Source: Bacilli bacterium (GTDB lineage Bacteria; Bacillota_I; Bacilli_A; RF39; UBA660). Taken from it: a DNA stretch of 64,000 nt. The stretch spans positions 16,189-80,188 of the forward strand of contig CAAERO010000005.1 of the NCBI GenBank assembly GCA_900758495.1, given 5' to 3'. Positions 20,064-64,000 of this stretch are shown in pieces (the stretch's first letter is position 1; every line of letters starts with the position of its first letter). A model generated the notes under the pieces. It searched no databases. It had not been told where the DNA came from and worked only from the letters and a program-made list of their open reading frames with translations. The position numbers and the translations under genes are program-made.

Positions 20064-20140
20064 TGTAAACATCTCCTCAAGGATTATTGTAACAAAAAAA
20101 GGGGACAATAGAAAGTATTTTCTCCCATTTTACACTATTT

Positions 20141-47774: not shown

Positions 47775-50700
47775 TCAAGAGGTAATTATTGACGATAATA
47801 ATTCTGTTAGATAGAAAATAGGGTGTTTTTCAAGTTTAATTGTGTCTAGTATTATTGTTATACCATCACTAGTTGATTTAAATCTAAACATTGGACTAAT
47901 ATTAAATGCTGTTCGAAATAGAGATTCGCCATTCTTTATTTTTTCTGTTAAAATAGTTATTTCTATTGTGTTCTTTGTTTGATGAACTTTCTTTATATCT
48001 AATTTCTTAACTAATTTTTCAAACCATTCTTCATACATATAAACTATAATATCTTCATTAAGTTTTCCAAAACGATCTTCTAATTCCTGCTTAGTTGCTA
48101 AAAGTTTTTCTTTACTATCTATTTGATTTATAATTCTATGAATTTCTATTTTTAATTCTTCTTCTTTGACATAAGAATCAGATATATGTGTTGAAACAGA
48201 AATTAATGGTGGTTGCAAATTTTCTTCGGCTGCTGGTTCTTCCCCTTTTATCTTCTTTGTTTCTTCTTCTAACATTTTCAAATACAAATCAATACCTACA
48301 CTATCAATAAATCCAGCTTGTTCGCTTCCCAATATATCTCCTGCTCCCCTTATTGATAAATCTCTCGTTGCAATAGCGAAACCACTTCCTAATGAAGTAA
48401 AGTCTTTTATTACTTTTAATCGTTTAGTAGCATTAGGTGATAATATTTTTCCTTCTTGGTACATTAAATAACAATAAGCAATTTTATTACTTCTGCCTAC
48501 TCTTCCTCTGATTTGGTATAATTGACTTAATCCAAAATGATCTGCATCAAGTATAATTAAAGTATTTACATTTGGAATATCTATTCCTGTTTCAATAATT
48601 GTAGTACACACTAAGACATCAGCATCATGATTTATAAATTTTATCATTTTATCTTCTATTTCATTCTTATCCATTTGACCATGAGCAGATATAACTATTG
48701 CATTTTTAACTAAATTACTAATTTCAGCTACTTTTTCATCTATATCTTTTACATGATTATATAATATGAATACCTGTCCATCACGAGCTAATTCTTTATT
48801 TATTGCCTCTTTTATTAATGTCTTATTTGTAGGTAACACATAAGTTTGAACTGGATATCTATTTATTGGAGGAGTTTCAATCAAAGACATACTTCTCAAA
48901 CCTGTTATTGATAGTTGGAGAGTTCTCGGAATTGGTGTTGCTGTTAATGTAAGCACATCAATAGTACTTTTATATATTTTAAGCTTTTCTTTTTGTTTAA
49001 CTCCAAATCTCTGTTCTTCATCGATAACCAACAATCCTAAATCTTTAGGCTTAATATCATCGCTTAAAAGTCTGTGTGTCCCAATTACTAAATCGATTGT
49101 TCCAGATTTTAGAGAATTGATTATTCTTGTAGTTTCCTTTGGAGAAGTAAATCTATTTAATAATCCTATTTTTATTGGAAATAACGAAAACCTTTCTAAA
49201 GCTGTTTCATAATGTTGATTTGAAAGAATAGTAGTTGGACAAAGAAATAAAACTTGTTTTTGGCTTAAAATTGCCTTAAAAATTGCTCTAAATGCAACTT
49301 CTGTTTTACCAAAACCAACATCTCCAACTAATAATCTATCCATTGGATGAGGAGTTTCCATATCTTCTTTAATTTGACTTGTAGCAATCAATTGATCTTT
49401 TGTTGGTTGATAATCAAAACTTTCTTCAAATTGTTTTTGTAACTCATCATCTTTTAAAAAGGCAAATCCTCTTTTATTTTCTCTTTCTGATTGGATTCTT
49501 AATAGATCGAGGGCCATATCATGGACTTTCGTCTTTACTCTATTTTTAACTTTTTGCCATTGATTACCACCTAACTGGTATATTTTAGGTTCTACACCTT
49601 CTTTAGATGAATACTTAAGTAATAAATCAATTTTTTCTACTGGAATATACAATTTATCCTTATCCTGATATAATACTTCAACATAATCTTTTAACTTGTC
49701 TCCTTGTTTCAATGTTTTCAAACCATTGTATATCCCTATACCACAACTTTGATGGACAACATAATCCCCAATTTCCAGCTTATTAATATCCATTATTTTT
49801 GTTCCATATTTAAAATTTGTTTTATATTTTTTAACTAACACTTTATTTTGAAATAATTCATTTGCTGTCAAAAAAATATAATTTTTATATATAAATCCAC
49901 TTTCCATATCTAACGAAATATAATTTATCTTAGCTGATATGATATTTTCTAAAGTAGTAGAAATTGATGGTAACTTTATTTTATTAATTAAATTTTTTTG
50001 TTGATATTCTTTGATAGCAATAATTATTGTTTTTCCATTTGATAATTCTTCTTTTAGATATTTCTCTATTGCCTCTACATTCTCATAAAATTGAGGAGGA
50101 TTTTTAGTATTAAACGATACTATTTTTTTATCAAATTCAATGGCACTATCTATCGAAAAATAAAATATTGAATTTTCAGTATATCTATCTTTATATGGAA
50201 AAAAATATCTTTTTTGTTCTATAGATTGTTCTTTTACGTAATCAGATACTTCATTTTTAGTAGTTTTATATATGTTTTTTATTGTATATGGATCCTTATA
50301 AATAATGATTGGTTTATTTAAATAATCTTGAACTGAATTTACTTCTATATAATCCTCTAGAGTTTTGTGTGAGCTATTTGCTTCTATTAATTCATTAGTT
50401 AAATATTCTGTACAAGGATAAATTGTTATTTTCTTTTTATGTTCTAATGAACGTTGACTATTTTCATCAAAAGTTCTTATCGATTCTATATTATCCCCAA
50501 AAAACTCTATTCTTATTGGATGTATTTCTCCCAATGGGAATACATCCAATATAAATCCACGAACTCCTAGTTCACCAGTTCTTGTTACTATAGTTTCTTT
50601 TTTATATCCAAGTAATAATAATTTATTAACTAAATCATCACGAGAAATTTCCATATCAACTTCTAAATTCAATATTTTCGAATCATAATTTTCCTTAGTT

Positions 50701-51047
50701 GGCAAAAAATGTAAATAACCAATCAAATGTGTAATTACAATTAACGGTTTATCTAAACTTATTGCTTTCAAAGTTTCTAATCTAGTAATTAGCAAATCAG
50801 GAGAAACTGCAATTGCTTCACTTGTTAAAAAATCATCCATTGGGAATAAATAAGTATCCTCAGTATATAAAATAATTTTCTGAAATAATTTATTTGCTTC
50901 TAATAAAGTTGGTGTCACTAGCAATATATTTTTCTTTTCTTGTTTTAATAATTTCCACATATATATTGCAAAAAGTTCTTCAGACATATTGTCCAAAGAA
51001 ATAGGCTCAATTTTTATTGGTTTTAATACATCGTCTATAAAATTCAT
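47775..51047 (-). CDS. mfd: transcription-repair coupling factor
   Basis: CarD-like domain (GDYVVHQSCGIGIY), helicase motifs GDVGFGKTEVA and DEEQRFG, and a TRG motif region. Confidence 0.95.
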   Translation of the reverse strand: MNFIDDVLKPIKIEPISLDNMSEELFAIYMWKLLKQEKKNILLVTPTLLEANKLFQKIILYTEDTYLFPMDDFLTSEAIAVSPDLLITRLETLKAISLDKPLIVITHLIGYLHFLPTKENYDSKILNLEVDMEISRDDLVNKLLLLGYKKETIVTRTGELGVRGFILDVFPLGEIHPIRIEFFGDNIESIRTFDENSQRSLEHKKKITIYPCTEYLTNELIEANSSHKTLEDYIEVNSVQDYLNKPIIIYKDPYTIKNIYKTTKNEVSDYVKEQSIEQKRYFFPYKDRYTENSIFYFSIDSAIEFDKKIVSFNTKNPPQFYENVEAIEKYLKEELSNGKTIIIAIKEYQQKNLINKIKLPSISTTLENIISAKINYISLDMESGFIYKNYIFLTANELFQNKVLVKKYKTNFKYGTKIMDINKLEIGDYVVHQSCGIGIYNGLKTLKQGDKLKDYVEVLYQDKDKLYIPVEKIDLLLKYSSKEGVEPKIYQLGGNQWQKVKNRVKTKVHDMALDLLRIQSERENKRGFAFLKDDELQKQFEESFDYQPTKDQLIATSQIKEDMETPHPMDRLLVGDVGFGKTEVAFRAIFKAILSQKQVLFLCPTTILSNQHYETALERFSLFPIKIGLLNRFTSPKETTRIINSLKSGTIDLVIGTHRLLSDDIKPKDLGLLVIDEEQRFGVKQKEKLKIYKSTIDVLTLTATPIPRTLQLSITGLRSMSLIETPPINRYPVQTYVLPTNKTLIKEAINKELARDGQVFILYNHVKDIDEKVAEISNLVKNAIVISAHGQMDKNEIEDKMIKFINHDADVLVCTTIIETGIDIPNVNTLIILDADHFGLSQLYQIRGRVGRSNKIAYCYLMYQEGKILSPNATKRLKVIKDFTSLGSGFAIATRDLSIRGAGDILGSEQAGFIDSVGIDLYLKMLEEETKKIKGEEPAAEENLQPPLISVSTHISDSYVKEEELKIEIHRIINQIDSKEKLLATKQELEDRFGKLNEDIIVYMYEEWFEKLVKKLDIKKVHQTKNTIEITILTEKIKNGESLFRTAFNISPMFRFKSTSDGITIILDTIKLEKHPIFYLTELLSSIITS

Positions 51048-51053
51048 AAGATC

Positions 51054-51620
51054 CTACTTCCTGTGATTATATTTATTCATAACTATGTCAAATCTTTCAT
51101 TGACATAATCATTGATTATCTCCCTAACTACTGGTTCTAATTCTATTAACTTTTTTTCTTCTTCTAAACTAAACTTAGAGAGTACAAATGTTGTTTGATC
51201 CATTGTATTTCTAAGTTCCGAGTTTATTCCTATTCTCAATCTATTATACTTATTAGTTTTTAAACATTCTTCTATATTTTTTAACCCGTTGTGACCTCCA
51301 CTACTTCCTTGACTACGTAATCGATAGGTACCAATAGGAAGAGCTATATCATCACTAATGACTAATATTTCTTCTGGCTTTATTTTATAATATTTTGAAA
51401 ATAAAACTACTGATTCTCCAGAAAGATTCATATAAGTTTGTGGTTTTAAAAATATTACTTTCTCACCATTGATTATTTTTTCGCAATATAGTCCTTTAAA
51501 CTTATTTTTAAAAATTACATTTTGACCTGAAAAGTAACTATCTATAAAACGAAAGCCTATATTATGTCTTGTATTTTTGTATTCATTTCCATAATTTCCC
51601 AATCCTACTATTAATTTCAT
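51054..51620 (-). CDS. pth: peptidyl-tRNA hydrolase
   Basis: MKLIVGLGNYGNEYKNTRHNIGF and GSSGGHNGLKNI motifs. Confidence 0.9.
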   Translation of the reverse strand: MKLIVGLGNYGNEYKNTRHNIGFRFIDSYFSGQNVIFKNKFKGLYCEKIINGEKVIFLKPQTYMNLSGESVVLFSKYYKIKPEEILVISDDIALPIGTYRLRSQGSSGGHNGLKNIEECLKTNKYNRLRIGINSELRNTMDQTTFVLSKFSLEEEKKLIELEPVVREIINDYVNERFDIVMNKYNHRK

Positions 51621-51657
51621 TACTAACCTCTTTTCAAAATTATTTCCCAGGAAATAA

Positions 51658-52473
51658 TTATTTGCTTTGATGATATTCTTTATAAATAATAGACTTAGCT
51701 AATCCACGTTCTTTTGCTACTTTTTTCATTGCCTCATTTAATGTCATATTGTCTTGTAAATATAAATTAACATGTTCCTTTATTGCTAATTTTTGGTAAT
51801 TTTGTTTGTTTCCTTCGACTACTAAAACTATTTCACCTTTTAGCTCAAATGTATTATTTAAATATTCAATTATATCAGTTCTAATAACTTCCTCATATTT
51901 TTTGGTCAACTCTCTAACAATTGCTATCTTTCTATTTCCAAATATTTCCAACATATTTTTTAATGTATCAATTATTCTCTTTGGTGATTCATAAAATACC
52001 ATTGTAAATTCATAATTTTTTAATATGTCTAATTCTTTTAATTGCTTACTGCTTTTTGAATTTAAAAATCCATAAAATAAAAATGGTTGAGGAGCCAATG
52101 CTGATAATGTCAATGCAGGAACAAATGCAGTTGCTCCAGGTAAACTTACAATATCGTAGCCTTTTTTTGCTACAGATGATACTATTTTATAACCTGGATC
52201 ACTAATAATCGGAGTTCCTTGATCTGTTACCAATCCTATATTCAACCCATTATCTAAATATTCAATAACTTTACTACACATTTGTTCTTCATTATGATCA
52301 TGACAACTTACTAATTTTTTTTTAATATTAAAGTTACTTAATAATTTACCAGTTTCTCTTGTATCTTCACATAAAAGAATTTCTACAAATTCTAAAATTT
52401 TCAATGCTCTTATTGTTATATCATCATAATTACCAATTGGAGTTGGAATTAAGTATAATTTGTTATTTTTCAC
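51658..52473 (-). CDS. rsmI: 16S rRNA (cytidine1402-2'-O)-methyltransferase
   Basis: LYLIPTPIGNYDDITIRALKIL..CEDTR and SDPGYK motifs of the tetrapyrrole-methylase-fold RsmI. Confidence 0.9.
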   Translation of the reverse strand: MKNNKLYLIPTPIGNYDDITIRALKILEFVEILLCEDTRETGKLLSNFNIKKKLVSCHDHNEEQMCSKVIEYLDNGLNIGLVTDQGTPIISDPGYKIVSSVAKKGYDIVSLPGATAFVPALTLSALAPQPFLFYGFLNSKSSKQLKELDILKNYEFTMVFYESPKRIIDTLKNMLEIFGNRKIAIVRELTKKYEEVIRTDIIEYLNNTFELKGEIVLVVEGNKQNYQKLAIKEHVNLYLQDNMTLNEAMKKVAKERGLAKSIIYKEYHQSK

Positions 52474-53167
52474 TTTTTATCTCGCTTTCTAAAAAAATTG
52501 GTGGTTCTATTTTTAAACCTGATTTTCCATAATATATTGCATCTACTAAAAATAATGATGCCACTGAATTTCTATTATGGTGAATAAATCTGATTCTTTT
52601 TGGTTCTAAATTATGCTTTTTTAAAATTGTCAATATTTCAATAAAACGTTCTGATCTTTGTATAAAATAAAAATGTCCGTTTTGCTTCATTATTTTACTT
52701 GCATACAATGAAATTTCTTCAAAATCTATTTCAATTTCATGACGAGAAATCGCTTTTGAAAGTGAAATACTCATTTTTCTGTTTTCATTTATTTTAAAAT
52801 AAGGAGGATTAGTTATTAATATATCAATACTATTCGGAGAAAAATAGTTTTGGCAATTTTGAAACTTATCTTCTATAATTTCTATTTGCCTGCTTAAATT
52901 ATTATTATGAATATTTAATTTAGCAATTTTGACTAATTCTTTCTGTACTTCTATTCCATAAATTTTATTATTTATTTTTGTACTCAATAATAAAGGAATT
53001 AATCCTTGACCTGTTCCCACATCAAGAATAACCCTATTTCTATTATGTGGTAAATCAATAAAGTCGGCTAATAAGACGCTATCACTAGTTAATAAAAAAG
53101 AGTTTGAAGACTGTGTATAACTTATTTGCGTTTTATTATGCTCTATTGTTTGTACCTTAATTTTCAT
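52463..53167 (-). CDS. SAM-dependent methyltransferase, YabB / tRNA (adenine-N6) TrmN6-like
   Basis: ILDVGTGQGLIPL SAM motif and NPPY (ITNPPYF) catalytic motif. The position matches Bacillus yabB. Confidence 0.7.
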   Translation of the reverse strand: MKIKVQTIEHNKTQISYTQSSNSFLLTSDSVLLADFIDLPHNRNRVILDVGTGQGLIPLLLSTKINNKIYGIEVQKELVKIAKLNIHNNNLSRQIEIIEDKFQNCQNYFSPNSIDILITNPPYFKINENRKMSISLSKAISRHEIEIDFEEISLYASKIMKQNGHFYFIQRSERFIEILTILKKHNLEPKRIRFIHHNRNSVASLFLVDAIYYGKSGLKIEPPIFLESEIKSEK

Positions 53168-53960
53168 TTTTTATTTCAACTACTTCCTTATTTTTCAATT
53201 CTACTTTATAGGTATTATTTAATATATTTATTTCTGTGACTTTCCCCTCCACATTCCCAATTTTTACCATTTTTCCAATATTTGGAAAATTTTTTTTTGA
53301 ATTTGTATAATTTTCATCTTCATATTTTAAACAACATAATAATCTACCACAAATACCATTTATTTTTGTTGGGTTCAAAGCTAAAAACTGATTTTTAGCC
53401 ATTCCAATAGATACACTGGAAAAATCTGTCAAAAAAGTGTTACAACATAAAAATAAACCACAGGGGCCTATTCCGCCTATTTTTTGAGCTTTATCACGAA
53501 CTCCAATTTGTCTAAGTTCTATTCTTGTTTTATATTTTTGTGCTAAAACCTTAGTCAATTCTCTAAAGTCAATTCTAGTATCAGCCACATAACTTATAAA
53601 TAATTGTTTTTTATCAAAAGTATAAAAAGAATCAATGAACTTCATTTCTAACTTTAATTCATTAGCTTTAGCTTGTGAATAAGATAAAACCTCTGTACAA
53701 TCAAGTTCATTTTTTCTCTGTTGAGTTAAATCATCAGTAGTAGCTACCCTAATAAATTTTGTTTTTTTCTCTAAAATAAGATTGGACATACTACTTTCCA
53801 TTTCAACTTTTATTACTTCTGCTAATCTAAAGTTGGATTCCGTTTCAACAATTATTTTGGTTCCAATATCTATTGTTTCACCATTTTGAGGCTTAAATTT
53901 TATTACAACGATTTCCTTCTTTAAACATGAATTGCTATATCTAATCATTAAAAGATTCAT
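53157..53960 (-). CDS. ricT: PSP1-domain protein RicT (YaaT)
   Basis: Cys-rich PSP1 C-terminal region (GPCGLFLCCNTFL, GICGRLLCCLKYE). It follows holB, as in Bacillus. Confidence 0.85.
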   Translation of the reverse strand: MNLLMIRYSNSCLKKEIVVIKFKPQNGETIDIGTKIIVETESNFRLAEVIKVEMESSMSNLILEKKTKFIRVATTDDLTQQRKNELDCTEVLSYSQAKANELKLEMKFIDSFYTFDKKQLFISYVADTRIDFRELTKVLAQKYKTRIELRQIGVRDKAQKIGGIGPCGLFLCCNTFLTDFSSVSIGMAKNQFLALNPTKINGICGRLLCCLKYEDENYTNSKKNFPNIGKMVKIGNVEGKVTEINILNNTYKVELKNKEVVEIKNEN

Positions 53961-54819
53961 TTAATACCTCCGTAAATTTAATAAATAAAGAATCAAGCCA
54001 AAGTTTAATATTTACATTATATTGTAATCTAACCAAAAATTCATCAATAATTCCAATTATCTTTAGTAATTTTACTTTTGATAAACTTAGTTCATCTATA
54101 TTTATATTTTGAACTTTTATACTACTATTTTCTAAATAATTCTGAAATATTTTTGACAATTCTTTCATAGTCTTTATTGATTGTTCTTTTGTTTGAAATA
54201 AATTTTCATAGTATTTATTAAAATTTAGTATAAGTGGTTTTTCTTTTGAGAAAAAATCATTAACTAATTCTAATAATATTGAACTATAATTCTCATTTAA
54301 AAAAAAAGTTTTTTCCTTTTTAAGTGACATAACTATACATCTAGACAGAATTGTTGGTAAAATTTTATAACGATGAGTGGATAATAAGATAGCAATAATA
54401 TTTTCTTCTGGCTCTTCTAAAAATTTCAAAATAGTATTTGAAGCGCTTTTATTTAACATTTCAGCATTATGAATTACATATATTTGATAGTTATTATAAA
54501 TTGATTTGGTGGAAAATTTGTTCATTACTTGTAATAACCGCTCTTTTTTTATCATATTTGATTCTGGATAAATATTTATTAGTTCTGGATAATTATTTGT
54601 ATCAATAAGATTTATTAACTTATCCTCGCTTAATAAATTAGTCTCTTTATTTTTTAACAATATAATTATCTTGCAAAATTCTTTAATATAAGAATCAATT
54701 AACTGTTCATCATTGCTATTTGTTTCAATCAAATATGCATGATGAACCTTTCCTAAATAGAGTGGAACAATTGCTTGTTTATAAAATAATTGTTGGTTCT
54801 GTTCTAATCGTTCTAACAT
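53941..54819 (-). CDS. holB: DNA polymerase III delta-prime subunit
   Basis: ..KVHHAYLIE.., NKSASNTILKFLEEPEENIIAILL and TILSRC motifs. Confidence 0.8.
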   Translation of the reverse strand: MLERLEQNQQLFYKQAIVPLYLGKVHHAYLIETNSNDEQLIDSYIKEFCKIIILLKNKETNLLSEDKLINLIDTNNYPELINIYPESNMIKKERLLQVMNKFSTKSIYNNYQIYVIHNAEMLNKSASNTILKFLEEPEENIIAILLSTHRYKILPTILSRCIVMSLKKEKTFFLNENYSSILLELVNDFFSKEKPLILNFNKYYENLFQTKEQSIKTMKELSKIFQNYLENSSIKVQNINIDELSLSKVKLLKIIGIIDEFLVRLQYNVNIKLWLDSLFIKFTEVLNESFND

Positions 54820-54879
54820 TTACTAATCACTATCAACCAATAGAATGACTTTCTATTAAATGGTTCCTTTCTAAAAAAA

Positions 54880-55065
54880 TTAAAATAACAACACTTTTAA
54901 CAAAATGAATACAAAAAGTATCGGAAATCCTAATACCCCAACGGAACCAATAGTAATTAGGTTTATCGGTATTACTAGGTTAAACTTTGTTGCAATCAAA
55001 TTATAACTATAAAGTATTAAAATACTTAATATGATTCTTTTTAAAATTGCCATTATTATTTTCAT
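54880..55065 (-). CDS. bofA: pro-sigma-K processing inhibitor BofA-like small membrane protein
   Basis: ..VIPINLITIGSVGVLGFPIL.. parallels B. subtilis BofA (..HVPINLVTTAISGILGIPGI..). It lies after recR, as in Bacillus. Confidence 0.6.
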   Translation of the reverse strand: MKIIMAILKRIILSILILYSYNLIATKFNLVIPINLITIGSVGVLGFPILFVFILLKVLLF

Positions 55066-55102
55066 ATTTTCACCTAATAATAATTATGATTCATTTTGCA
55101 AT

Positions 55103-55699
55103 TTATGCTATTTCTTTTCTGTCTTCTAAGGCTTTTGATAAAGTTAAACCATCGACGTATTCCATATCTGCTCCCATAGGTACACCACTAGCTAACCTTG
55201 TTATCTTTAAATCTTGAGATTCTAATACTTTTTTTATATATAATGATGTTATTTCTCCTTCTACATTTGGTTTTAATGCTAAAATTATCTCTTTATATTT
55301 TTGTTTTTTTAATCTACTCAGTATTTTTTCAATACCAATATCTTCTGGCTTAATTTCATCTAAAGGGGAAATTAAGCCATTTAAAACATGATACTTTCCT
55401 TTATATATTCCTATTTTTTCAAATAAAAATACAATTTTAGAATCCTCTACAATACACAATGTTTCGTCATTCCTAGTTTCATCAGAGCATATTGTACATA
55501 TTTCTTTATCAGTTAAAGTTTGACAAATAGGACATTTATGTATATTTTGTCTTACATTTTTTATTCCATCTTCTAAAGATATAATTCTATCATTATCAAA
55601 ATCCAATAAGTTAAACGCCATTCTTTCAGCTGTTTTCTCACCAATTCCAGGAAATGATTTAAAACTATCTATCAAATTTTTTAAACTTTCTGGATACAT
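55103..55699 (-). CDS. recR: recombination protein RecR
   Basis: N-terminal HhH (LIDSFKSFPGIGEKTAERMAF), C4 zinc finger (CPICQ..CTIC) and a Toprim domain. Confidence 0.95.
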   Translation of the reverse strand: MYPESLKNLIDSFKSFPGIGEKTAERMAFNLLDFDNDRIISLEDGIKNVRQNIHKCPICQTLTDKEICTICSDETRNDETLCIVEDSKIVFLFEKIGIYKGKYHVLNGLISPLDEIKPEDIGIEKILSRLKKQKYKEIILALKPNVEGEITSLYIKKVLESQDLKITRLASGVPMGADMEYVDGLTLSKALEDRKEIA

Positions 55700-55700
55700 A

Positions 55701-56000
55701 TTACATAATTCCAGGAATACTACCTGCTAGTGCTCCCATTGTATCTTGAACAGTTTGATCTATCTTTTTACAAGTATTATTTATGGCTATTTTTATCATA
55801 TCTTCTAAAATATCTTTATCGTCTGATGTGAACTCTGTATCTAAATCAATTTTTAGTGCTATCACTTCTTTTTTTCCATTCATTTTCACTGTTACAAATC
55901 CTTGTTTTGTTTCAAACTCCATTTTGTCTATTTCAGCTTGTTTATTCATTAAATCCTTTTGCATTTTTTGTGCTTGTTTCATCATTGCTTGTATATTCAT
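55701..56000 (-). CDS. ybaB: nucleoid-associated protein YbaB/EbfC (YaaK)
   Basis: MMKQAQKMQKDLMNKQAEI.. pattern, and its position between dnaX and recR. Confidence 0.9.
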   Translation of the reverse strand: MNIQAMMKQAQKMQKDLMNKQAEIDKMEFETKQGFVTVKMNGKKEVIALKIDLDTEFTSDDKDILEDMIKIAINNTCKKIDQTVQDTMGALAGSIPGIM

Positions 56001-56019
56001 TATATTTTCCTTCTTTCTT

Positions 56020-57645
56020 TTATCTAATTTCTACTAAATTTCCAAATAACTCTTTTGCCATTTCATATCGATTATTACTATTTAAACTTTCATTATTTTT
56101 TTTTTCGATGACAGGTTCATCTACTATTGTTAATCTTTTTCCTGATTTTACTATATCTATATATTCACTTTTAAGTTTTACCCATTCATCGGTTGATATA
56201 AAAGACATTTTTTTATTTTTTTGAAATAAGCTGTTATAATAGTCATTAATCTTCTGGCAGTGATCATAAAGTTTTTTTAAACTAGATATATATTCATAGC
56301 TAACAACTATTGAGTTTTCACTTGCAGCCCGTGGTATTCCATCCAGCAATTCACAAGCTATATATCCATTATTAACATCAAAAGTATAATCATTCAATTT
56401 TTTCCAAAGATCTAATTCCTTGTTTAGTTCGATTTTAGATGCTTCTGCCATAGTATTTTTGGCACGTATTGTCATTAAATTTTCTATTTCATTATAATTA
56501 ATTTTTTCACTTCTTTTTATTTTTTCAACATCATTTACTGATTCTTCAGTTACTATAATATAATCTGCTTTTTCATTATTTTCTTTAACATCTTTTTTTG
56601 TGATTTTACTTTTGTTATTTTTATTAATAAAATTTAATATCATTATCTCAATATAAGTTTTCATATCATCCGTTTTTTTAATATCAGATATTTTTTCATT
56701 TAGTAGATTAACTAATTCAATTGTATCATTTTCATTATATTTCAAAGGTATATCTTTAATATATAACTCTACTAGTTTATTCTTTAAGTCAAATATCAAC
56801 TGTTTTAAGACTTGTAATAAGTCTTTACCATCACTGTAATATTGTTCTATTTTTTCAAGCATTTCATTAGCCTTATAGAACAAAATTGTATCCTCAAATT
56901 CTTCCAAATCATCTGATCTTATTTGCCCATTCATAACTAGAAAATCATTATATTTTATTGTGCCTTCCTTATAAGAGCTTAATTTGTCTAATAATCCTAT
57001 TGCATCTCGCAACCCACCATCTGATGAAATTGATATAGATTGTAAAACTTTTTCCTCTACATCAATGTTCTCTTCGACTGATATTTTTTTTAATAAGTTC
57101 ACTATATCTAGTGAACTTATTTTCTTAAATTGAAAACTTTGACATCTAGATATTATAGTATTAGGAATTTTTTGAGGATCAGTGGTTGCTAAAACAAAAA
57201 TAACATGTTCAGGTGGCTCTTCTAAAGTTTTTAATAAAGCATTAAAGGCCCCTATTGAAAGCATATGAACTTCATCAATTATATAAACTTTATATTTTAA
57301 TTCAGTGGGAAGAATTTTTACCTTATTTCTTAATTCTCTAATTTCATCTACTCCATTGTTTGAAGCAGCATCTATTTCTATAATGTCCATACACTCTTTT
57401 TGAACTGAATATAAACAATTTTTACACTTCTCACAAATTTCATTTTTATAATCCAAACAATTAATCGCTCTCGCAAATATTTTAGCAATTGTTGTTTTAC
57501 CAGTTCCCCTTGGGCCAGCAAATAAATAAGCATGGTTGATATGATGATTCTTTATACTATTTTCTAATGTTGTCACAATTACATTTTGACCTACTACATC
57601 AGAAAATTTTTTTGGTCTATACTTTCTATATAAAGCTTGATACAT
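56020..57645 (-). CDS. dnaX: DNA polymerase III subunits gamma/tau
   Basis: MYQALYRKYRPKKFSDVVGQ, Walker A GPRGTGKTT, zinc module CEKCKNC and DEVHML. Confidence 0.9.
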   Translation of the reverse strand: MYQALYRKYRPKKFSDVVGQNVIVTTLENSIKNHHINHAYLFAGPRGTGKTTIAKIFARAINCLDYKNEICEKCKNCLYSVQKECMDIIEIDAASNNGVDEIRELRNKVKILPTELKYKVYIIDEVHMLSIGAFNALLKTLEEPPEHVIFVLATTDPQKIPNTIISRCQSFQFKKISSLDIVNLLKKISVEENIDVEEKVLQSISISSDGGLRDAIGLLDKLSSYKEGTIKYNDFLVMNGQIRSDDLEEFEDTILFYKANEMLEKIEQYYSDGKDLLQVLKQLIFDLKNKLVELYIKDIPLKYNENDTIELVNLLNEKISDIKKTDDMKTYIEIMILNFINKNNKSKITKKDVKENNEKADYIIVTEESVNDVEKIKRSEKINYNEIENLMTIRAKNTMAEASKIELNKELDLWKKLNDYTFDVNNGYIACELLDGIPRAASENSIVVSYEYISSLKKLYDHCQKINDYYNSLFQKNKKMSFISTDEWVKLKSEYIDIVKSGKRLTIVDEPVIEKKNNESLNSNNRYEMAKELFGNLVEIR

Positions 57646-57865
57646 GATATCACCTCACATTTAATATTATAACACTTTTAATACCTATTAGTAAAATAAT
57701 GTGAATAAAAAACAAATCGTTTGATAAATATTTGTTCCATTTTTTAACATAATAAGCTAGATATTAATTACACTTTCTATTCTGTTCTGCAATATTATAC
57801 TTACTAAGTATAATAAATTATTAATTATACTATTAAAAGCAACATTTTTCACTAGAACATTTGTA

Positions 57866-58309
57866 TTATCTTTTGCTTTTAAAAAATTTTCTTAATAATA
57901 TTAAACTCTCATTTTCTTTTAATCCTGAAAAATATTTTATAGAAAAATTATTATCTCTATTTTCGCAAATCATTTCAAATATTTTGTGATTATTTATATT
58001 ACTAGATTTAGCCCCATAATATATATTACTAATTCTACTTTGCTTAATAGCACTTGCACACATGGGGCATGGTTCAAGCGTGACGTATATGTCACAATTA
58101 TTTAATCTCCAATTTTGTAATTTTCTACTAGCTTCTTCTATCACAAGCATTTCTGCATGAGCTAAAGAAGAATTATTTTTATTTTTTAAATTATGAGCTC
58201 TTGCTAAAATTTTACCATTATTAACTATAATTGCACCAACTGGTACTTCATCAAGATCAAGTGATTTTCTTGCTTCAATCAGTGCCTCCTTCATAAATTT
58301 TTCATTCAT
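57866..58309 (-). CDS. tadA: tRNA adenosine(34) deaminase
   Basis: HAEM zinc motif and PCPMCASA motif. RBS before the ATG at 58309. Confidence 0.9.
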   Translation of the reverse strand: MNEKFMKEALIEARKSLDLDEVPVGAIIVNNGKILARAHNLKNKNNSSLAHAEMLVIEEASRKLQNWRLNNCDIYVTLEPCPMCASAIKQSRISNIYYGAKSSNINNHKIFEMICENRDNNFSIKYFSGLKENESLILLRKFFKSKR

Positions 58310-58342
58310 ATAATATAATCTCCATTTTTTTACAAAATAAAA

Positions 58343-58416
58343 GTGCACATAAATGAATTATGTTAAGGCTGCTATGTTTCCATCCTGACCTATTTCCATA
58401 AACATCTATTGCACAT
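58343..58416 (-). ncRNA. ffs: small (4.5S-type, ~75 nt) signal recognition particle RNA
   Basis: The minus strand reads GTGCAATAGATGTTTATGGAAATAGGTCAGGATGGAAACATAGCAGCCTTAACATAATTCATTTATGTGCAC. The core GGTCAGG..GGAA..AGCAGCC parallels E. coli 4.5S domain IV (GGUCAGGUCCGGAAGGAAGCAGCC). The ends are complementary (GTGCA/TGCAC) and a T-run follows. An ffs gene next to tadA and dnaX is expected from Bacillus synteny. Confidence 0.55.
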
Positions 58417-58558
58417 ATATATAATAAATTAAGATTTGTAAAAAAGCAAGACTTTTCCTGTGAAAAATTAGAAAAAATGACAGTAATTTAAAATCAAGAA
58501 AAATGAAATAATTAGTGAAAATGATAGTAATTTGTTTTAATACAACCTTTTGTATTCA

Positions 58559-59255
58559 AAGGAGGTTATTTTTTGTTAAATAGATATGTGCAAAAAAATA
58601 TGATATTATTTCACTGTTTGTGCACAAGAAAACTGTTCAGTTGTATAAAAAAATAAAGACACTTATTAAAGAAGATAGATAGTACTAACAAAAGTGAAGA
58701 AAATGTTGAATTATTTAAGTCAAGAATTATAGAAACAGAAAAAGCACATCCAAGAAAGTCTAATAATTTATATGTATTTGGTCAAGAATCACAAATAGAT
58801 ATTTGTCAAAAAGTTCGGTTTAGTGGTACTCCCTCGTTTTTACACTTAGCAGTTGATAAGGCTACAATGTGGAAAGAGAAAATAAAACATTTAAAGATAG
58901 ACTAATTGCTGAATTAAGATATATGAATATAACCAATATTGATGAATCAATAAATATTTAAATGAAGTATTTATACCTAAAATGAATAGAATTTTTTTTC
59001 TTATGCTATTGATGAAAAAAACAACATTGATGAGAAGAAATTCTTATACAAAAGAAGAATTAAAATTAATTATTTAAGAAAGAAAAGAAAAAATAATAGA
59101 TAATACATCATGTATAAGTTAGAACAAAAAATATTATATTCCATTAAATTTATAAACTGGAGAGACAACTAATTTTAAAAGAGGGACAAAATATACTTTG
59201 ATAATTGATTATGATGGTAAGTTATTACAACATGTTAAAACTTAAAAATAGAGAT
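58559..59255 (+). pseudogene. heavily decayed rve-type (ISNCY/IS1202-like?) transposase
   Basis: The plus-strand frame reads ..AHPRKSNNLYVFGQESQIDICQKVRFSGTPSFLHLAVDKAT... This resembles the H.R....G...Q.D.S...WF....L...IDDAT block. Later come ..NEVFIPKMN..F.YAI and a C-terminal ..YIPLNL.TGETTNFKRGTKYTLIIDYDGKLL. There are many stops and frameshifts. Confidence 0.4.
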
Positions 59256-60332
59256 TCTGTTATAAAAAAATAAGAAACAGCCTGTTTCTTACATTAGTAA
59301 AAATTTTCAATAATTTATGGAACAATTAACTTAAAAAAATAGAAAAATAAAAGATTAAATACATTGCCAATAATATGAAAAAGACATTACTTATCTGAAT
59401 GTAGTAATGTCTCACTATGAAGGAATAAATGTATATAGAAATTGAAAATAAAAAATTGAGTATTTTAATTACACCATTAATCTAAATTGTAACTTTCATT
59501 TTTGAATATTACCCATAATAGATTAAAAAACACTTTATTAATTAATTATTGACTTATTTAATATCTATAAACATGAGAACTATTTAAGCCTAGTTTTTAT
59601 TAAAAGTAAAAAAATTTTACAAGTAAAAAAGAAGTAAGCAAAAAAATCGCCCAGATGCCAACTTCTTTTTCAAACACAAATCTAGAAAGTTTAAATTTAA
59701 ACTTTCAATTAAGATTTGCTAACTAAATTATAACAAATAATTTGCTTTTTGAAAACTAGTAATGGAAAATTTAAAGATTTTTTTGTATTTATTAAGTTTT
59801 ATGAATAAAAAAAATAATACCCAAGCTGGTTTTTCTTTTGTTTTGTAAGGTAATTAGATAGTAACAGCTAACAATACAAATAGAAAAACAAACAAAAAAA
59901 TTCTAATTATATATGAATTTAAGTCATAAATAAGGATACAAAGAAAAATCAAAAAAAGAGATAAACAACTCATAATAAATTTCGATTAAAAAAGCATTAA
60001 TTAAATATAAATTAAGTATATATTGAATAGTATGAATTTAAACAAGGAAATAAACACTAAAAAAAGCAAAAAAATTTTATATTATTTATTTATCTTTAAA
60101 TCTGAGTAAAAAAACTCAGATTTAAAAATAAAATATCAGGTGATTATGGGAGAGAGTATGCATATAAAATAATACTTTGCTAACTCTTTAATAATTAGTT
60201 TTTGTTTTATGTATGATATTTTTTTTAATATTACTGTCGTTTTAGTCTTGACACTTTTTCCTCAGAATTTTTGTTCAATAGCTTTATGTCATACTTTATT
60301 CTATTTATTTTCACATTTTTTCCTTCCTATTT

Positions 60333-60348
60333 TGTTTCACATGAAACA
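60333..60348. promoter_or_regulatory. parS-like site, 1 mismatch (TGTTTCACATGAAACA)
   Basis: Read directly from the sequence, unit 1. Confidence 0.6.
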
Positions 60349-60364
60349 TATTATTTATTATTTT

Positions 60365-60380
60365 TATTTCCTTGGAAATA
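60365..60380. promoter_or_regulatory. degenerate NBS-like site (TATTTCCTTGGAAATA)
   Basis: Read directly from the sequence, unit 1. There are two core mismatches. Confidence 0.4.
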
Positions 60381-60408
60381 TTTTTTCCACAGTTTTGCTT
60401 TCCTATTT

Positions 60409-60424
60409 TGTTTTACGTGAAACA
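60409..60424. promoter_or_regulatory. parS-like site, 1 mismatch (TGTTTTACGTGAAACA)
   Basis: Read directly from the sequence, unit 2. Confidence 0.6.
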
Positions 60425-60440
60425 TATTATTTATTATGTT

Positions 60441-60456
60441 TATTTTCCAGGAAATA
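60441..60456. promoter_or_regulatory. degenerate NBS-like site (TATTTTCCAGGAAATA)
   Basis: Read directly from the sequence, unit 2. There are two mismatches. Confidence 0.4.
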
Positions 60457-60484
60457 TTTTTTTCACATTTTTGCTTTCCTTTTT

Positions 60485-60500
60485 TGTTTCACGTGAAACA
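60485..60500. promoter_or_regulatory. perfect consensus parS (TGTTTCACGTGAAACA)
   Basis: Read directly from the sequence, unit 3. It is a perfect 16-bp palindrome. Confidence 0.8.
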
Positions 60501-60516
60501 TATTATTTATTATGTT

Positions 60517-60532
60517 TATTTCCCGGGAAATA
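60517..60532. promoter_or_regulatory. perfect consensus Noc-binding site (TATTTCCCGGGAAATA)
   Basis: Read directly from the sequence, unit 3. It is a perfect 16-bp palindrome. Confidence 0.75.
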
Positions 60533-60560
60533 TTTTTTTCACATTTTTGCTTTCCTATTT

Positions 60561-60576
60561 TGTTTCACGTGAAACA
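60561..60576. promoter_or_regulatory. perfect consensus parS
   Basis: Read directly from the sequence, unit 4. Confidence 0.8.
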
Positions 60577-60592
60577 TATTATTTATTATGTT

Positions 60593-60608
60593 TATTTCCC
60601 GGGAAATA
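60593..60608. promoter_or_regulatory. perfect consensus Noc-binding site
   Basis: Read directly from the sequence, unit 4. Confidence 0.75.
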
Positions 60609-60635
60609 TTTTTTTCACATTTTGTTTTCCTTTTT

Positions 60636-60651
60636 TGTTTCACGTGAAACA
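60636..60651. promoter_or_regulatory. perfect consensus parS
   Basis: Read directly from the sequence, unit 5. Confidence 0.8.
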
Positions 60652-60667
60652 TATTATTTATTATGTT

Positions 60668-60683
60668 TATTTCCCGGGAAATA
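60668..60683. promoter_or_regulatory. perfect consensus Noc-binding site
   Basis: Read directly from the sequence, unit 5. Confidence 0.75.
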
Positions 60684-60711
60684 TTTTTTCCACAGTTTTG
60701 CTTTCCTATTT

Positions 60712-60727
60712 TGTTTTACGTGAAACA
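60712..60727. promoter_or_regulatory. parS-like site, 1 mismatch (TGTTTTACGTGAAACA)
   Basis: Read directly from the sequence, unit 6. Confidence 0.6.
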
Positions 60728-60743
60728 TATTATTTATTATGTT

Positions 60744-60759
60744 TATTTCCCGGGAAATA
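60744..60759. promoter_or_regulatory. perfect consensus Noc-binding site
   Basis: Read directly from the sequence, unit 6. Confidence 0.75.
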
Positions 60760-60784
60760 TTTTTTCCACAGTTTTGATTTTATT

Positions 60785-61793
60785 TTTGCTGTTTATCTGT
60801 TTTATATTATTTTCACTACAATAATCTAAATTTTTTTTTCAAAATATGCACCATCACCAATTATTGCTTCAATTTCAATTCCAGTATTTTCACTTTTTTC
60901 TATTAAATTAATAAGTTCTGTTCCATCGTATTTTTCACCAGTAGTAATAGTGGACAGCGATAATTATTCTTTCTGGTGTCATGGCTATATGTGTTTTGTA
61001 ACCAAAAAATGATGTATCAGCAGTTTTATGTCCTACTTTTGCATCTTGATTTTTTGAATATTCTAGTTCTATTTCTGTATCATTCATAGTTTCTTCTAAA
61101 TAATCTATTTGTTCTTTTATGCCTGGAAGTGCAGTGAATCTTCCATCATCTTTAACAATTTGCAATAGTTCTTTTGTATAATCAATTTGATTCTCCAACA
61201 ATCCTGTCGTTTCTCTTTTTATAGGCATTTTGTCATGCATGGATTCATCTATTTTATATATTGAATTTCTTAGTTCTTTAGCTTGTCTTATTAGTTCTTC
61301 TATTGGCGATATATGGTGAAACATAGTATTTGTATGAGTTGAGTCAACTATAATTTTATTTTTAACTTCTATCAAACCTTTTTCTAATGCATCTCTACAG
61401 TTTTATTGATTAATTTATCCATTAGATTTTCTTCTTCATCTTTTAATCTTTCTCGGCGAAAAACAGTTAATAAACTTGGATTAATTAACTTTGTTTCTTT
61501 TGGATCATAACCTAAAAAATACTTAAATAACAAATCTGTCTGAGTTCTTTCTACTAAACCTCTGTCAGATAATTTGAAATATGATTTCAGTAACAAATAT
61601 TTAAACATTCCTATTACAGCTCCACTTGTTCTTCCCATTGTTAAAGAATATTTATCTTTTAGTTCTTCATACACAAATGAAAAGTCTATCATATCGTTTA
61701 ATTGTTTCCAAAAATTGTCTTATTTAATTAATATATCGTATAATTCTGTATGTTTACTAAAGTTCAACTCTAACTGATTTGTTCTTTTTAACA
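60785..61793 (-). mobile_element. IS1182/IS5-type transposase pseudogene, 3'-truncated where it meets the repeat array
   Basis: N-terminal MLKRTNQLELNFSKH..*, then the DUF772-like block (FKYLLLKSYFKLSDRGLVERTQTDLLFKYFLG), then DSTH, GYKTHIAMT, and after frameshifts ..TTGEKYDGTELINLIEKSENTGIEIEAIIGDGAYF..NLDYCSENNIKQI. At least 4 stops or frameshifts are present. No terminal inverted repeats were identified. Confidence 0.65.
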
Positions 61794-61833
61794 TATTTAT
61801 CACCATAATTCTTACAGACATATTATTTATATC

Positions 61834-61869
61834 AAAATAAAAAGACTACTGAAATATTTACAGTAATCT
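61834..61869 (-). terminator. rho-independent terminator after gyrA
   Basis: The minus strand reads AGATTACTG-TAAATATTT-CAGTAGTCT followed by TTTTATTTT. Confidence 0.55.
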
Positions 61870-61892
61870 ACATAAACTTTTTCAGCAGCTTC

Positions 61893-64000
61893 TTATTCAG
61901 TTTCTATTTTTTCTTCTTTATCTACTATAGCAATAGTTGCTACTTTCTGATTTTCTTTCAAATTAATTAGTCTATTACCCTGTGTGGCCCTTTTTAAAGT
62001 AGCAATCTGATTCAATGGCATTCTCATAATAATTCCGCTATCTGTGACTATCATTATATCAAGTTTATCAACTATTAATGGATCAACATATTTTAATGTT
62101 ACCATACTTCCATTTTTGTCTGTAATGTTTAATGCCTTAACTCCTTTACTGCCCCTATGAGTTAATCTATACTCATCTATTGTAGTCTTTTTGCCATAAC
62201 CATTTTCTGTAACAATTAAAATTTCTTCACCTGGATTTATAATTTCGGTGCTTACTACTTCACTATTATCAGATAAATCGATTCCCTTTACACCAGAAGT
62301 TCCTCTACCCATGGATCTAATTTCTGATTCTTTAAATCTTACCATTCGCCCATTATTTGTTCCTATGACTACTTCATCGCTTCCAGTAGTTTTTCTCACA
62401 GATATCAATTCATCACCATCTTTTAAGACTATTGAAATCTTTCCACTTTTTCTAATGTTATTAAATTCATCTATTGGTGTTCTTTTAACTAATCCTTGTT
62501 TAGTAGAAAATAGTAAGTATTTAATTCTGTCTTCATTAGAATCCAATTCTAACATGGAACGTATGTTTTCTTTTTTTTCTAATGATAATAAATTAACTAT
62601 AGGTATACCTTTAGATTGTCTACTAAATTCTGGTATTTCATATCCTTTTAATCTATATACTTTTCCATTATTTGAGAAAAATAATAAATAATCATGGGTT
62701 TTCATAGGAATTACTTGCTCTACAAAGTCTTCATCATTAGTTGACATTCCTTTAATGCCCACTCCACCTCTATTTTGACTTCTATATGTATCTGATTTAA
62801 TTCTTTTAATATATCCTTTATTAGTTAATGTTACAATTATATCATCTACTGGTATTAAGGACTCATCTTCAATATATTCGATTGCAGTCATATCAATATT
62901 AGTTCTTCGTTCATCTGCATATTTTTCTTTTATTTCTAATAATTCTTCTTTGATAACTTTAAGAATATTTTCATCACTACTTAGTACTTCTTTTAACTTT
63001 TCTATTGTTTTTAATAATTCATCTAGTTCAGATTCTATTTTTTCTCTCTCAAGACCTGTCAATCTTCTTAATTTCATTTCTAAAATAGAATTAGCTTGAA
63101 TTTCTGTTAAACCAAATTGATTGATTAGACCTGTTCTGGCCTCATCATCTGTTTTAGAAGCACGAATCAATTTTATAACAGCATCAATGTGATCCAGAGC
63201 TATTTTTAAGCCTTCTAAAATATGAACTCTTTTCTCAGCAACATCTAAATCATACTTAGTTCTACGGATTATTACTTCCTTTTGATAATCAATATACTTA
63301 ACTATAATATCTCTTAAGCCTAATGTCTTAGGTACACCTTGATCTAGCATTAAAAATATTATTCCATATGTAGTTTGAAAAGCTGTATGTTTAAATAATT
63401 TATTCAATACTACTTGAGCATTAGCATCTTTTTTTAACGTAATAGTTATCTTTATGCCATTCTTTAAATCAGAATGATAATCAGAAATTCCCTCAATTGT
63501 TTTATTATGAACAAGTTCTGCCACTTTATTCTTTAATTCAAGTGTATTAACTCCATATGGAACTTCGTCTATTATTATATATTGACGACCATTTTTTTCT
63601 TCAATAGTAGCCTTACTTCTTATAGTAATAGAACCACGTCCAGTTTCATATGCCTTTCTGATTCCACTATTGCCAAGTATATTAGCTCCAGTTGGAAAGT
63701 CTGGTCCCTTAATATACTGCATTAATTCGTCTAAAGTTATATCGTGGTTATCAATATAGGCAACACATCCATCTATAACTTCACCTAAATTATGTGGTGG
63801 TATATTGGTAGCCATTCCTACTGCTATACCAGTTGTTCCATTAACCAAAATATTTGGAAATCTAGATGGTAAGACTTCTGGCTCTTTTGTTGTTTCATCA
63901 AAGTTTGGTATAAAATTAACAGTGTTCTTATTAATATTTCTTAACAATTCAAGTGAAATCTTTGATAATCTTGTTTCAGTATAACGCATTGCAGCAGCAC
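61893..64000 (-). CDS. gyrA: DNA gyrase subunit A, C-terminal ~700 aa (N-terminus beyond the right edge)
   Basis: The frame is open to the window edge (..AAAMRYTETRLSKI, the hallmark GyrA segment just after the catalytic Tyr region). GyrA-box/beta-pinwheel repeats follow (QNRGGVGIKG...). Confidence 0.95.
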   Translation of the reverse strand, partial: AAAMRYTETRLSKISLELLRNINKNTVNFIPNFDETTKEPEVLPSRFPNILVNGTTGIAVGMATNIPPHNLGEVIDGCVAYIDNHDITLDELMQYIKGPDFPTGANILGNSGIRKAYETGRGSITIRSKATIEEKNGRQYIIIDEVPYGVNTLELKNKVAELVHNKTIEGISDYHSDLKNGIKITITLKKDANAQVVLNKLFKHTAFQTTYGIIFLMLDQGVPKTLGLRDIIVKYIDYQKEVIIRRTKYDLDVAEKRVHILEGLKIALDHIDAVIKLIRASKTDDEARTGLINQFGLTEIQANSILEMKLRRLTGLEREKIESELDELLKTIEKLKEVLSSDENILKVIKEELLEIKEKYADERRTNIDMTAIEYIEDESLIPVDDIIVTLTNKGYIKRIKSDTYRSQNRGGVGIKGMSTNDEDFVEQVIPMKTHDYLLFFSNNGKVYRLKGYEIPEFSRQSKGIPIVNLLSLEKKENIRSMLELDSNEDRIKYLLFSTKQGLVKRTPIDEFNNIRKSGKISIVLKDGDELISVRKTTGSDEVVIGTNNGRMVRFKESEIRSMGRGTSGVKGIDLSDNSEVVSTEIINPGEEILIVTENGYGKKTTIDEYRLTHRGSKGVKALNITDKNGSMVTLKYVDPLIVDKLDIMIVTDSGIIMRMPLNQIATLKRATQGNRLINLKENQKVATIAIVDKEEKIETE

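Follow-up and report, generated by a model that had tools for sequence, protein, structure and literature searches.

An array of interleaved parS and Noc-binding palindromes beside gyrA, a probable composite centromere of uncultured gut Bacilli

Results

The locus and its array

The 64,000-nucleotide stretch of the Bacilli contig CAAERO010000005.1 that was analysed here (the window) carries a tandem array in which two different palindromes alternate: parS, the site of the partition protein ParB, and the Noc-binding site (NBS) of its paralogue Noc. Around the array the 3' end of gyrA (61893), two fragments of an insertion sequence (IS) of the IS1182 family, the array itself, 1.9 kb of filler, the gene for the signal recognition particle (SRP) RNA, tadA, dnaX, ybaB and recR follow one another. 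All genes of the window are located on the minus strand, and the G+C content is ~27%. The array ends 1.1 kb from the stop codon of gyrA and is found ~9.5-10 kb from the start of dnaA on the same contig, the origin-proximal position that is typical of parS.

Tandem Repeats Finder (TRF) delineates the repeats as one single array (repeat family D1) with a period of 76 bp, 93% matches, no indels and a score of 802 (Table 1). Each 76-bp unit contains one consensus parS (TGTTTCACGTGAAACA) and one consensus NBS (TATTTCCCGGGAAATA) that starts 32 bp further on; from the start of an NBS to the start of the next parS the distances are 44, 44, 44, 43 and 44 bp. Both 16-mers match letter for letter the consensus sequences that Jalal et al. 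2020 (PMC7383237) used for parS and NBS. Three exact and three one-mismatch copies of the 16-bp parS palindrome TGTTNCACGTGAAACA and four exact and two degenerate copies of the NBS palindrome were counted, for a chance expectation of zero in the shuffled window. TRF and the motif scans thus agree with an initial annotation, made from the letters alone, that had described six ~76-bp units of alternating parS and NBS with spacings of 32 and 43-44 bp and had named both consensus sequences correctly; its statements that the array lies ~1.1 kb from the gyrA 3' end, is origin-proximal and adjoins a truncated IS1182-type transposase were likewise confirmed.

No further parS was found in the 64-kb window with up to three mismatches, and neither parS nor NBS in the 21 kb to the left of oriC with up to two. 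The array is the sole parS cluster within the ~85 kb of origin-proximal DNA that were read, which answers for this region the question of the initial annotation whether it is the dominant cluster. An Rfam scan of positions 50000-64000 detected no RNA family over the array, the SRP RNA being its sole match. Open reading frames (ORFs) of 49-105 amino acids on the plus strand across the array were dismissed as artefacts of the repeat. A higher-order pattern is visible between 60378 and 60760, where units 2 and 6 have CCACAG and TGTTTTAC in common and units 3-5 have TCACAT and TGTTTCAC; this suggests either that a multi-unit block was duplicated or that the assembly was mis-joined or collapsed.

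Table 1. Coordinates of the array, its sites and the surrounding features in the window.
Feature	Position	Strand	Evidence or remark
Isolated NBS-like site TATTTCCCAGGAAATA, 1 mismatch	51641..51656	.	37-bp spacer between pth and rsmI-like gene
tadA, conserved right boundary of the spacer	57866-58309		follows SRP RNA, then dnaX; all three mark this boundary
SRP RNA, small bacterial type	58329..58425	-	Rfam RF00169, 55.5 bits
Non-coding species-specific filler, array to SRP RNA	58457..60290	.	no ORF of >=40 amino acids wholly inside
Tandem array, 76-bp unit, 6.3 copies as assembled	60302..60780	.	TRF
parS unit 1, TGTTTCACATGAAACA, 1 mismatch	60333..60348	.	motif scan
NBS unit 1, degenerate, TATTTCCTTGGAAATA, 2 mismatches	60365..60380	.	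motif scan
DnaA-box-like TTTTCCACA, 1 mismatch to TTATCCACA	60383..60391	+	3 bp after NBS; also 60686-60694 and 60762-60770
parS unit 2, TGTTTTACGTGAAACA, 1 mismatch	60409..60424	.	motif scan
NBS unit 2, degenerate, TATTTTCCAGGAAATA, 2 mismatches	60441..60456	.	motif scan
parS unit 3, exact consensus	60485..60500	.	motif scan
NBS unit 3, exact consensus	60517..60532	.	motif scan
parS unit 4, exact consensus	60561..60576	.	motif scan
NBS unit 4, exact consensus	60593..60608	.	motif scan
parS unit 5, exact consensus	60636..60651	.	motif scan
NBS unit 5, exact consensus	60668..60683	.	motif scan
parS unit 6, TGTTTTACGTGAAACA, 1 mismatch	60712..60727	.	motif scan
NBS unit 6, exact consensus	60744..60759	.	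motif scan
Truncated IS1182-family transposase, two ORF fragments (61384-61692, 60935-61375)	60935..61692	-	Pfam DUF772; NCBIfam transpos_IS1182
3' part of gyrA, which bounds the gyrA-tadA spacer on the left (conserved)	61893..64000	-	

Copy number

The array is real, and it is the copy number alone that is unreliable. It was seen in independent assemblies of the same strain and as a homologous array in a sister species whose DnaA is 94% identical. A scaffold of the window's strain in ENA has N-gaps within the array that leave room for ~8 units, and two further short-read contigs of this strain terminate inside it. The sister species is represented by a gapless contig of 1,546,216 bp (ENA ERZ28754907, contig_4467; L138), on which an 82-bp unit is repeated 20.3 times at positions 18966-20633; the 21 NBS and 20 parS cores there are exact throughout, whereas eight short-read assemblies of the same species show 3-13 sites, with a 100-N gap in seven. 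In view of the N-gaps, the contig ends inside the array and the sister species with its 20.3 units on a gapless contig, the count of six for the window is probably only a minimum.

Occurrence in related species

A scan of GTDB (one genome per species) with the pattern GTTTCACGTGAAAC-N(6-36)-ATTTCCCGGGAAAT, which picks loci for a close parS-NBS pair, returned at least 119 stretches. Those listed belong nearly all to uncultured gut metagenome-assembled genomes (MAGs) labelled Bacilli, Erysipelotrichaceae, Mycoplasma, Tenericutes or Clostridium sp. CAG:710. Judged by the record titles, they probably represent RF39, a genome-reduced order, together with relatives of it; the listing of the genus name Candidatus Scybalousia under Bacteroidales at NCBI was of no help for the placement. 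At 104 of the 119 listed loci gyrA is followed immediately by the cluster, and tadA-dnaX adjoin it in ~100. Both site types are densely clustered at almost every listed locus, with a median of 3 parS and 2 NBS and a maximum of 12 and 13. The main clusters of these loci (~76 kb) contain 447 parS and 289 NBS, the remaining ~794 kb 36 and 57; as to the scatter and terminus depletion by which NBS may be judged, the NBS are here clustered with parS, with those 57 in the flanks of the relatives. Perfect NBS are scattered in the origin-proximal flanks of relatives at ~1 per 14 kb, and parS is almost confined to the cluster.

A sample that does not depend on the motif was obtained from species reached solely via DnaA similarity (74-94%), and all of them carry parS and NBS in the gyrA-tadA spacer. 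The loci L127-L129 and L135-L140 (DnaA 94%) contain a homologous array with units of 80-82 bp. In L132 (DnaA 78%) the order N-P-N-P-N-P-N-P-N (N for NBS, P for parS) extends across 870 bp with unique, non-repeated spacers, L133 (DnaA 76%) has one NBS and four parS, and L134 (DnaA 75%) the series P-N-P. The composite cluster of parS and NBS is a clade-wide feature, neither an oddity of one genome nor mobile DNA.

Alternation, spacing and turnover of the spacers

Unit lengths of 62, 76, 80-82, 84, 117, 136 and ~170 bp occur in different species, with unrelated spacers and perfect palindromes, and a tandem arrangement is missing altogether from some clusters. Identity between units amounts to 93-98% within an array and to 74-80% between the window and the sister species, for 86% in the flanking tadA region. 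This pattern indicates concerted evolution through unequal exchange.

Alternation itself is not a matter of chance: 440 of 617 neighbouring site pairs are heterotypic, compared with 317 +/- 11 after shuffling of the labels inside each cluster. With one count per locus, close parS-NBS distances peak at 25-27, 35-37 and 45-49 bp and have troughs at 29-30 and 41-44 bp, in a set of related loci that were ascertained on one pair 20-50 bp apart. The Rayleigh statistic reaches z = 22 at a period of 10.5-11 bp, a value attained by 0 of 20000 smoothed-null simulations. The periodicity is absent for parS-parS distances and for parS-NBS distances beyond 50 bp. Such a phase corresponds to n+1/2 helical turns and would place neighbouring dimers on opposite faces of the helix. 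The phased close spacing and the alternation across species argue for a mutual influence of the two bound proteins.

Two geometrical claims of the initial annotation do not survive this comparison. Its proposal that all 12 sites face one side of the DNA is incompatible with a 76-bp unit, which corresponds to 7.24 helical turns and a rotation of ~86 degrees per unit, and the clade prefers 26, 36 and 47 bp. Nor is a strict phased tandem array the essence of the feature, since L132 alternates the same sites with unique spacers; tandem phasing arises in individual species as a by-product when units are amplified.

Two ParB-family paralogues across the origin

No parB or noc gene was detected near the clusters, i.e. 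in the window or in the 8-kb GTDB loci, by tblastn with Spo0J and Noc queries; walking along the contig located both genes across oriC. The DNA of the window is matched on a 208,772-bp human-gut metagenome scaffold (ENA ERZ28577779) with the order mscS-parB-parA-(gene of a 481-residue ParB-family protein)-rsmG-mnmG-mnmE-x-jag-yidC-rnpA-rpmH, then dnaA-dnaN-comK-like-recF-gyrB-gyrA-IS fragments-array. The par genes are located 7-10 kb from dnaA on the side opposite to the array, so that ~17 kb across oriC separate parAB from the array. The absence of a ParB or a Noc homologue, named in the initial annotation as a fatal objection, was not seen: both are encoded, in the order rsmG-noc-parA-parB beside oriC, and the pair of a parB and a noc-like gene is present in every related species examined.

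ParB comprises 293 residues (L130:12322-13203) and has an N-terminal peptide of the usual ParA-stimulating type (RRALGKGLEELF). Its recognition helix (GKSRSHVTNMMGLLNLP...SMGHAR) provides the residues R, M, N and G at the specificity positions, of which R173 and G201 are of the parS type (positions and rules according to PMC7383237). A ParA of 261 residues is encoded upstream of parB, and a cognate ParB with parS-type residues is thus accompanied by its ParA. Both ParB and the Noc-like protein retain the GERR motif for binding of cytidine triphosphate (CTP). The arginine patch of ParB reads GERRVLA in the window species and GERRVKA in L132, L133 and L134 instead of the usual GERRxRA, and the Noc-like family mostly has GERRYKA; in Noc of Bacillus subtilis the equivalent change, R91A, was the sole substitution tolerated in the arginine patch (PMC4331003).

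The ParB-family protein of 481 residues (P0121, L130:10001-11446) is encoded at the position of noc, between rsmG and parA. The top NCBIfam model is nucleoid_noc with 296 bits (parB_part: 192 bits), and the top PDB matches are the Noc structures 7nfu, 7ng0 and 7ol9 (E = 2.5e-62 to 6.6e-54; best ParB 7.8e-52). The recognition helix (GKSQSAVANKLRLLSLS...SERHAR) contains Q173, K179, S184 and R201 and is of the NBS type: Q173 and R201 switch the specificity to NBS, and one lysine at 179 or 184 suffices (PMC7383237). Among 151 representatives of the Noc-like family, clustered at 50% identity, Q173 is conserved in 151, R201 in 150 and K179 in 148, and position 184 is variable.

In B. subtilis Noc, 39 residues starting with MKHSFSRFFGLGEKE precede the motif PNRFQPR (PDB 7ol9), and the N-terminal amphipathic helix is highly conserved and needed for membrane binding and nucleoid occlusion (PMC4331003, PMC8429893). 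Unlike B. subtilis Noc, the paralogue of this clade lacks the helix and has a long disordered linker. In the window species 16 residues precede PNRFQPR, and the ATG is preceded by a Shine-Dalgarno sequence and, at a distance of three codons, by an in-frame stop; in nearly the whole family it is 13-21 residues. For a paralogue without the required N-terminal helix, the Noc-mediated membrane tethering that had been proposed at the outset cannot be assumed. The linker connects the DNA-binding domain to a conserved Noc-like C-terminal domain and is 65-528 residues long across the family and ~230 here (disordered at residues ~205-415); N, E, P and S abound in it, and R is nearly absent. A K/R-F-F motif is present in the linker of 53 of the 151 representatives, e.g. 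NKFFNFLEDEE, and as GNFKFFQPD at about residue 342 in the window species. It resembles SRFFGLGEKE of the canonical Noc N-terminus (PDB 7ol9) and could conceivably be a relocated membrane-targeting or partner-binding motif. The tetrapeptide DSLL occurs three times in the Noc-like protein of the window species.

Further features of the neighbourhood

The two IS1182 fragments cover positions 30-126 and 137-285 of the 488 positions of the transpos_IS1182 model, and tblastn matches to them were obtained in the window and in L001 only, i.e. in this species alone; the insertion is incidental. The longest stop-free stretches of the filler (58430-60290) are without a Pfam match, and no similarity to the sister species was found. 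It is A-rich, its reading frames are riddled with stops, and in strand composition positions 58001-60000 run counter to the rest of the window, GC skew and AT skew both being positive there; the filler is probably a decayed insertion. The isolated NBS-like site at 51641, which fills much of its 37-bp spacer, is also present in L001 and L002. A gene of the ComK family (~150 residues, PF06338) lies between dnaN and recF (L125:12769-13221) and at the same place in L127-L140; the insertion was found in every species of the clade examined and is unusual in the otherwise canonical block dnaA-dnaN-recF-gyrB-gyrA.

Discussion

A probable composite centromere

On the sites, their conservation and synteny, the spacing statistics, the genes and the specificity residues, all of which are observed, we base the reading that each site class probably serves its own paralogue as a functional loading site under selection and that the two classes jointly make up the centromere. 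Binding, clamp loading and the effect of co-loading are deduced from these observations, and any specific downstream role of co-loading is held at far lower confidence than this core claim. The idea of a composite centromere had already been put forward in the initial annotation, and it is now strongly backed by clusters of parS and NBS whose syntenic position is shared by more than 100 species.

We assume that the gyrA-tadA spacer is an amplified composite centromere, a dense origin-proximal loading zone for two paralogous CTP-dependent clamps. ParB would nucleate on parS, close into CTP clamps and spread, and would build a partition complex that is moved by ParA and that, by analogy, loads SMC. 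The Noc-type paralogue would nucleate on the interleaved NBS palindromes, and both clamp populations would thereby be loaded at one locus ~10 kb from oriC. The tandem form presumably arose via unequal-crossover amplification and homogenisation of the 76-bp unit, by which both kinds of site were multiplied in step, and selection would concern both palindromes as well as the short, helically phased distances between them, with the spacers exempt. The Noc paralogue may be part of the origin partition complex or may shape it, either in a mixed assembly with ParB, or as a boundary or roadblock that retains ParB clamps at the origin, or by recruitment of partners via its disordered linker. Such a role is the more likely one because the N-terminal membrane helix is missing, and canonical nucleoid occlusion via membrane tethering is less likely. 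We propose only tentatively, and may well be wrong in this, that the helix-less paralogue is co-loaded with ParB on interleaved sites in a stereospecific register of about half-integral turns to give a mixed partition complex at the origin.

Several observations weigh against this interpretation. The host organisms are uncultured, and binding at both palindromes is predicted from sequence. In the array of the window NBS is degenerate in units 1-2 and three parS copies have one mismatch, and its spacings of 32 and 43/44 bp lie off the peaks of the clade, so that the phasing rule is not obeyed in this species (the 35 and 47 bp of the sister species fall on the peaks). NBS are few in the spacers of some relatives, as in L133 with its single NBS and four parS and in several loci of the order PNPPPPPP. 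The loci, at least 119 in number, are related and were ascertained on the pair, and the statistics accordingly overstate their independence. Finally, the Noc-like protein, without the amphipathic helix expected of a Noc, scores 296 bits against TIGR04285, below the cut-off of 315 bits, the match being split by the inserted linker.

Alternative explanations

An added function in replication control, in which the array would titrate or position DnaA together with ParB, ParA and Noc, appears unlikely to us. With parS and NBS masked, TTATCCACA is the top enriched 9-mer of the clusters (22 perfect boxes compared with 0.7 in shuffles), at a density of 0.29 per kb as against 0.06 per kb in the flanks. 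In the window the DnaA-box-like TTTTCCACA is found three times, each directly beside an NBS, and the arrangement NBS+ATTTTT(T)CCAC persists in the related loci L027 and L128/L129; Noc of Staphylococcus aureus has reportedly been linked to the control of replication initiation. However, a perfect box lies in the cluster at only 12 of the 119 listed loci and a box with at most one mismatch at 37 of 119, half of the units of the window carry the two-mismatch TTTTTCACA in place of TTTTCCACA, and close relatives may have the arrangement in common simply because they inherited the same unit. It is quite unlikely, too, that one ParB-family protein of relaxed or dual specificity binds both palindromes and that alternation merely offers one clamp a greater variety of sites. 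Half-sites of parS and NBS differ at only two positions and dual-specificity variants are obtainable in the laboratory (PMC7383237), and ParB has unusual residues at 179 and 184 (M and N) and the GERRVLA patch. Yet the canonical residue sets, R...G and Q,K,-,R, reside in two separate paralogues, ParB and Noc as they occur in nature proved specific and conserved (PMC7383237), and intermediate half-sites are absent from the arrays, each site being either a clean parS or a clean NBS.

A neutral minisatellite, i.e. a 76-bp unit amplified by slippage with no selection for multiplicity or for NBS, would account for the 93% identity of the units, which indicates recent amplification, for copy numbers that differ between assemblies and for the decay of the edge units. 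This view is very unlikely, and the comparison between species already goes most of the way to refuting it: parS and NBS palindromes alike stay perfect in more than 100 species despite unrelated spacers and unit lengths, non-tandem clusters included, alternation and helical phasing are non-random, and the 41 sites of L138 are all perfect. Scarcely any credence can be given to a captured partition site of a plasmid, phage or mobile element that arrived with IS1182, an option of the initial annotation to which the adjoining transposase fragments and the tandem centromere repeats typical of plasmids, e.g. F sopC, lend some appeal. The IS fragments are limited to this species, the cluster is syntenic between gyrA and tadA clade-wide, the par genes are not adjacent, and neither a blastn search of plasmids and phages with the array nor a pattern scan of viral contigs gave a match. 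To regard the array as an assembly artefact is just as hard to credit: short-read assemblies do break or gap within it, but it is present in independent assemblies of the same strain and, as a homologue of 20 units, on one gapless contig of the sister species.

Relation to known systems

The parS/Spo0J and NBS/Noc systems of B. subtilis have identical 16-bp consensus sequences and follow the same logic of specificity residues, and the gene order rsmG-noc-parA(soj)-parB(spo0J) by oriC is common to B. subtilis and this clade. The parS sites of B. subtilis are dispersed single copies. Its NBS are found at scattered chromosomal positions (Wu et al. 2009, cited in PMC8429893). Here, in contrast, both are packed and interleaved in one spacer of ~0.5-1.7 kb.

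The centromere sopC of the F plasmid consists of 12 x 43-bp repeats, each with an inverted repeat bound by SopB. The present array resembles it in its head-to-tail repeats that each contain a palindromic site for a ParB-family protein, a multiplicity thought to aid the assembly of the partition complex, but it is not located on a plasmid or mobile element beside its own parAB: it is chromosomal and syntenic, its par operon is ~17 kb off across oriC, and each unit serves two paralogues. In mParSpot, reportedly an engineered labelling tool for human cells, ParB/parS and Noc/NBS are combined at separate, synthetic loci; the same two protein-site systems are used side by side, without a natural interleaved array. 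Chromosomal clusters of parS near oriC are also known from Corynebacterium, Myxococcus and Streptomyces. Like the present locus they offer several parS near oriC as a loading zone for ParB; unlike it they are parS-only, with kilobase spacing and without a second palindrome class or a tandem unit. Pseudomonas aeruginosa, with four parS sites near oriC (PMC4368675), is a further case of this kind. Our literature searches on ParB of RF39, on Noc-binding sites and parS, and on tandem and origin-proximal arrangements returned no description of composite clusters. Both sites, both protein families, parS clusters and tandem centromeres of plasmids are known already. We could not find, in the literature searched, an interleaved and phased parS/NBS centromere (of up to 41 sites), its clade-wide place after gyrA, or a helix-less Noc subfamily with a long linker.

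Implications

ParB/parS and Noc/NBS are the textbook case of how duplication allows a DNA-binding protein to take on another site and another task (partition and nucleoid occlusion, respectively), and in model organisms each system works at dispersed sites of its own. The locus described here bears directly on the divergence of Noc from ParB. The state with two clamps could be that of an ancestral Noc just after its duplication from ParB, before the membrane helix was acquired and the sites were dispersed; alternatively, Noc could have been secondarily re-purposed as a component of the centromere in these genome-reduced Bacilli. Short-read MAGs systematically collapse such arrays, and the centromeres of these genomes are under-represented as a consequence. 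Since it comprises just two small proteins and a 76- or 82-bp unit, the system is tractable, in vitro or in E. coli, for studies of the interplay of clamps and of the origin of Noc function. An abundant uncultured gut clade that has both site types together and in phase at what is probably its single centromere, and a Noc without a membrane anchor, suggests a cooperative use of the two paralogues not seen before, or a surviving intermediate in the evolution of Noc.

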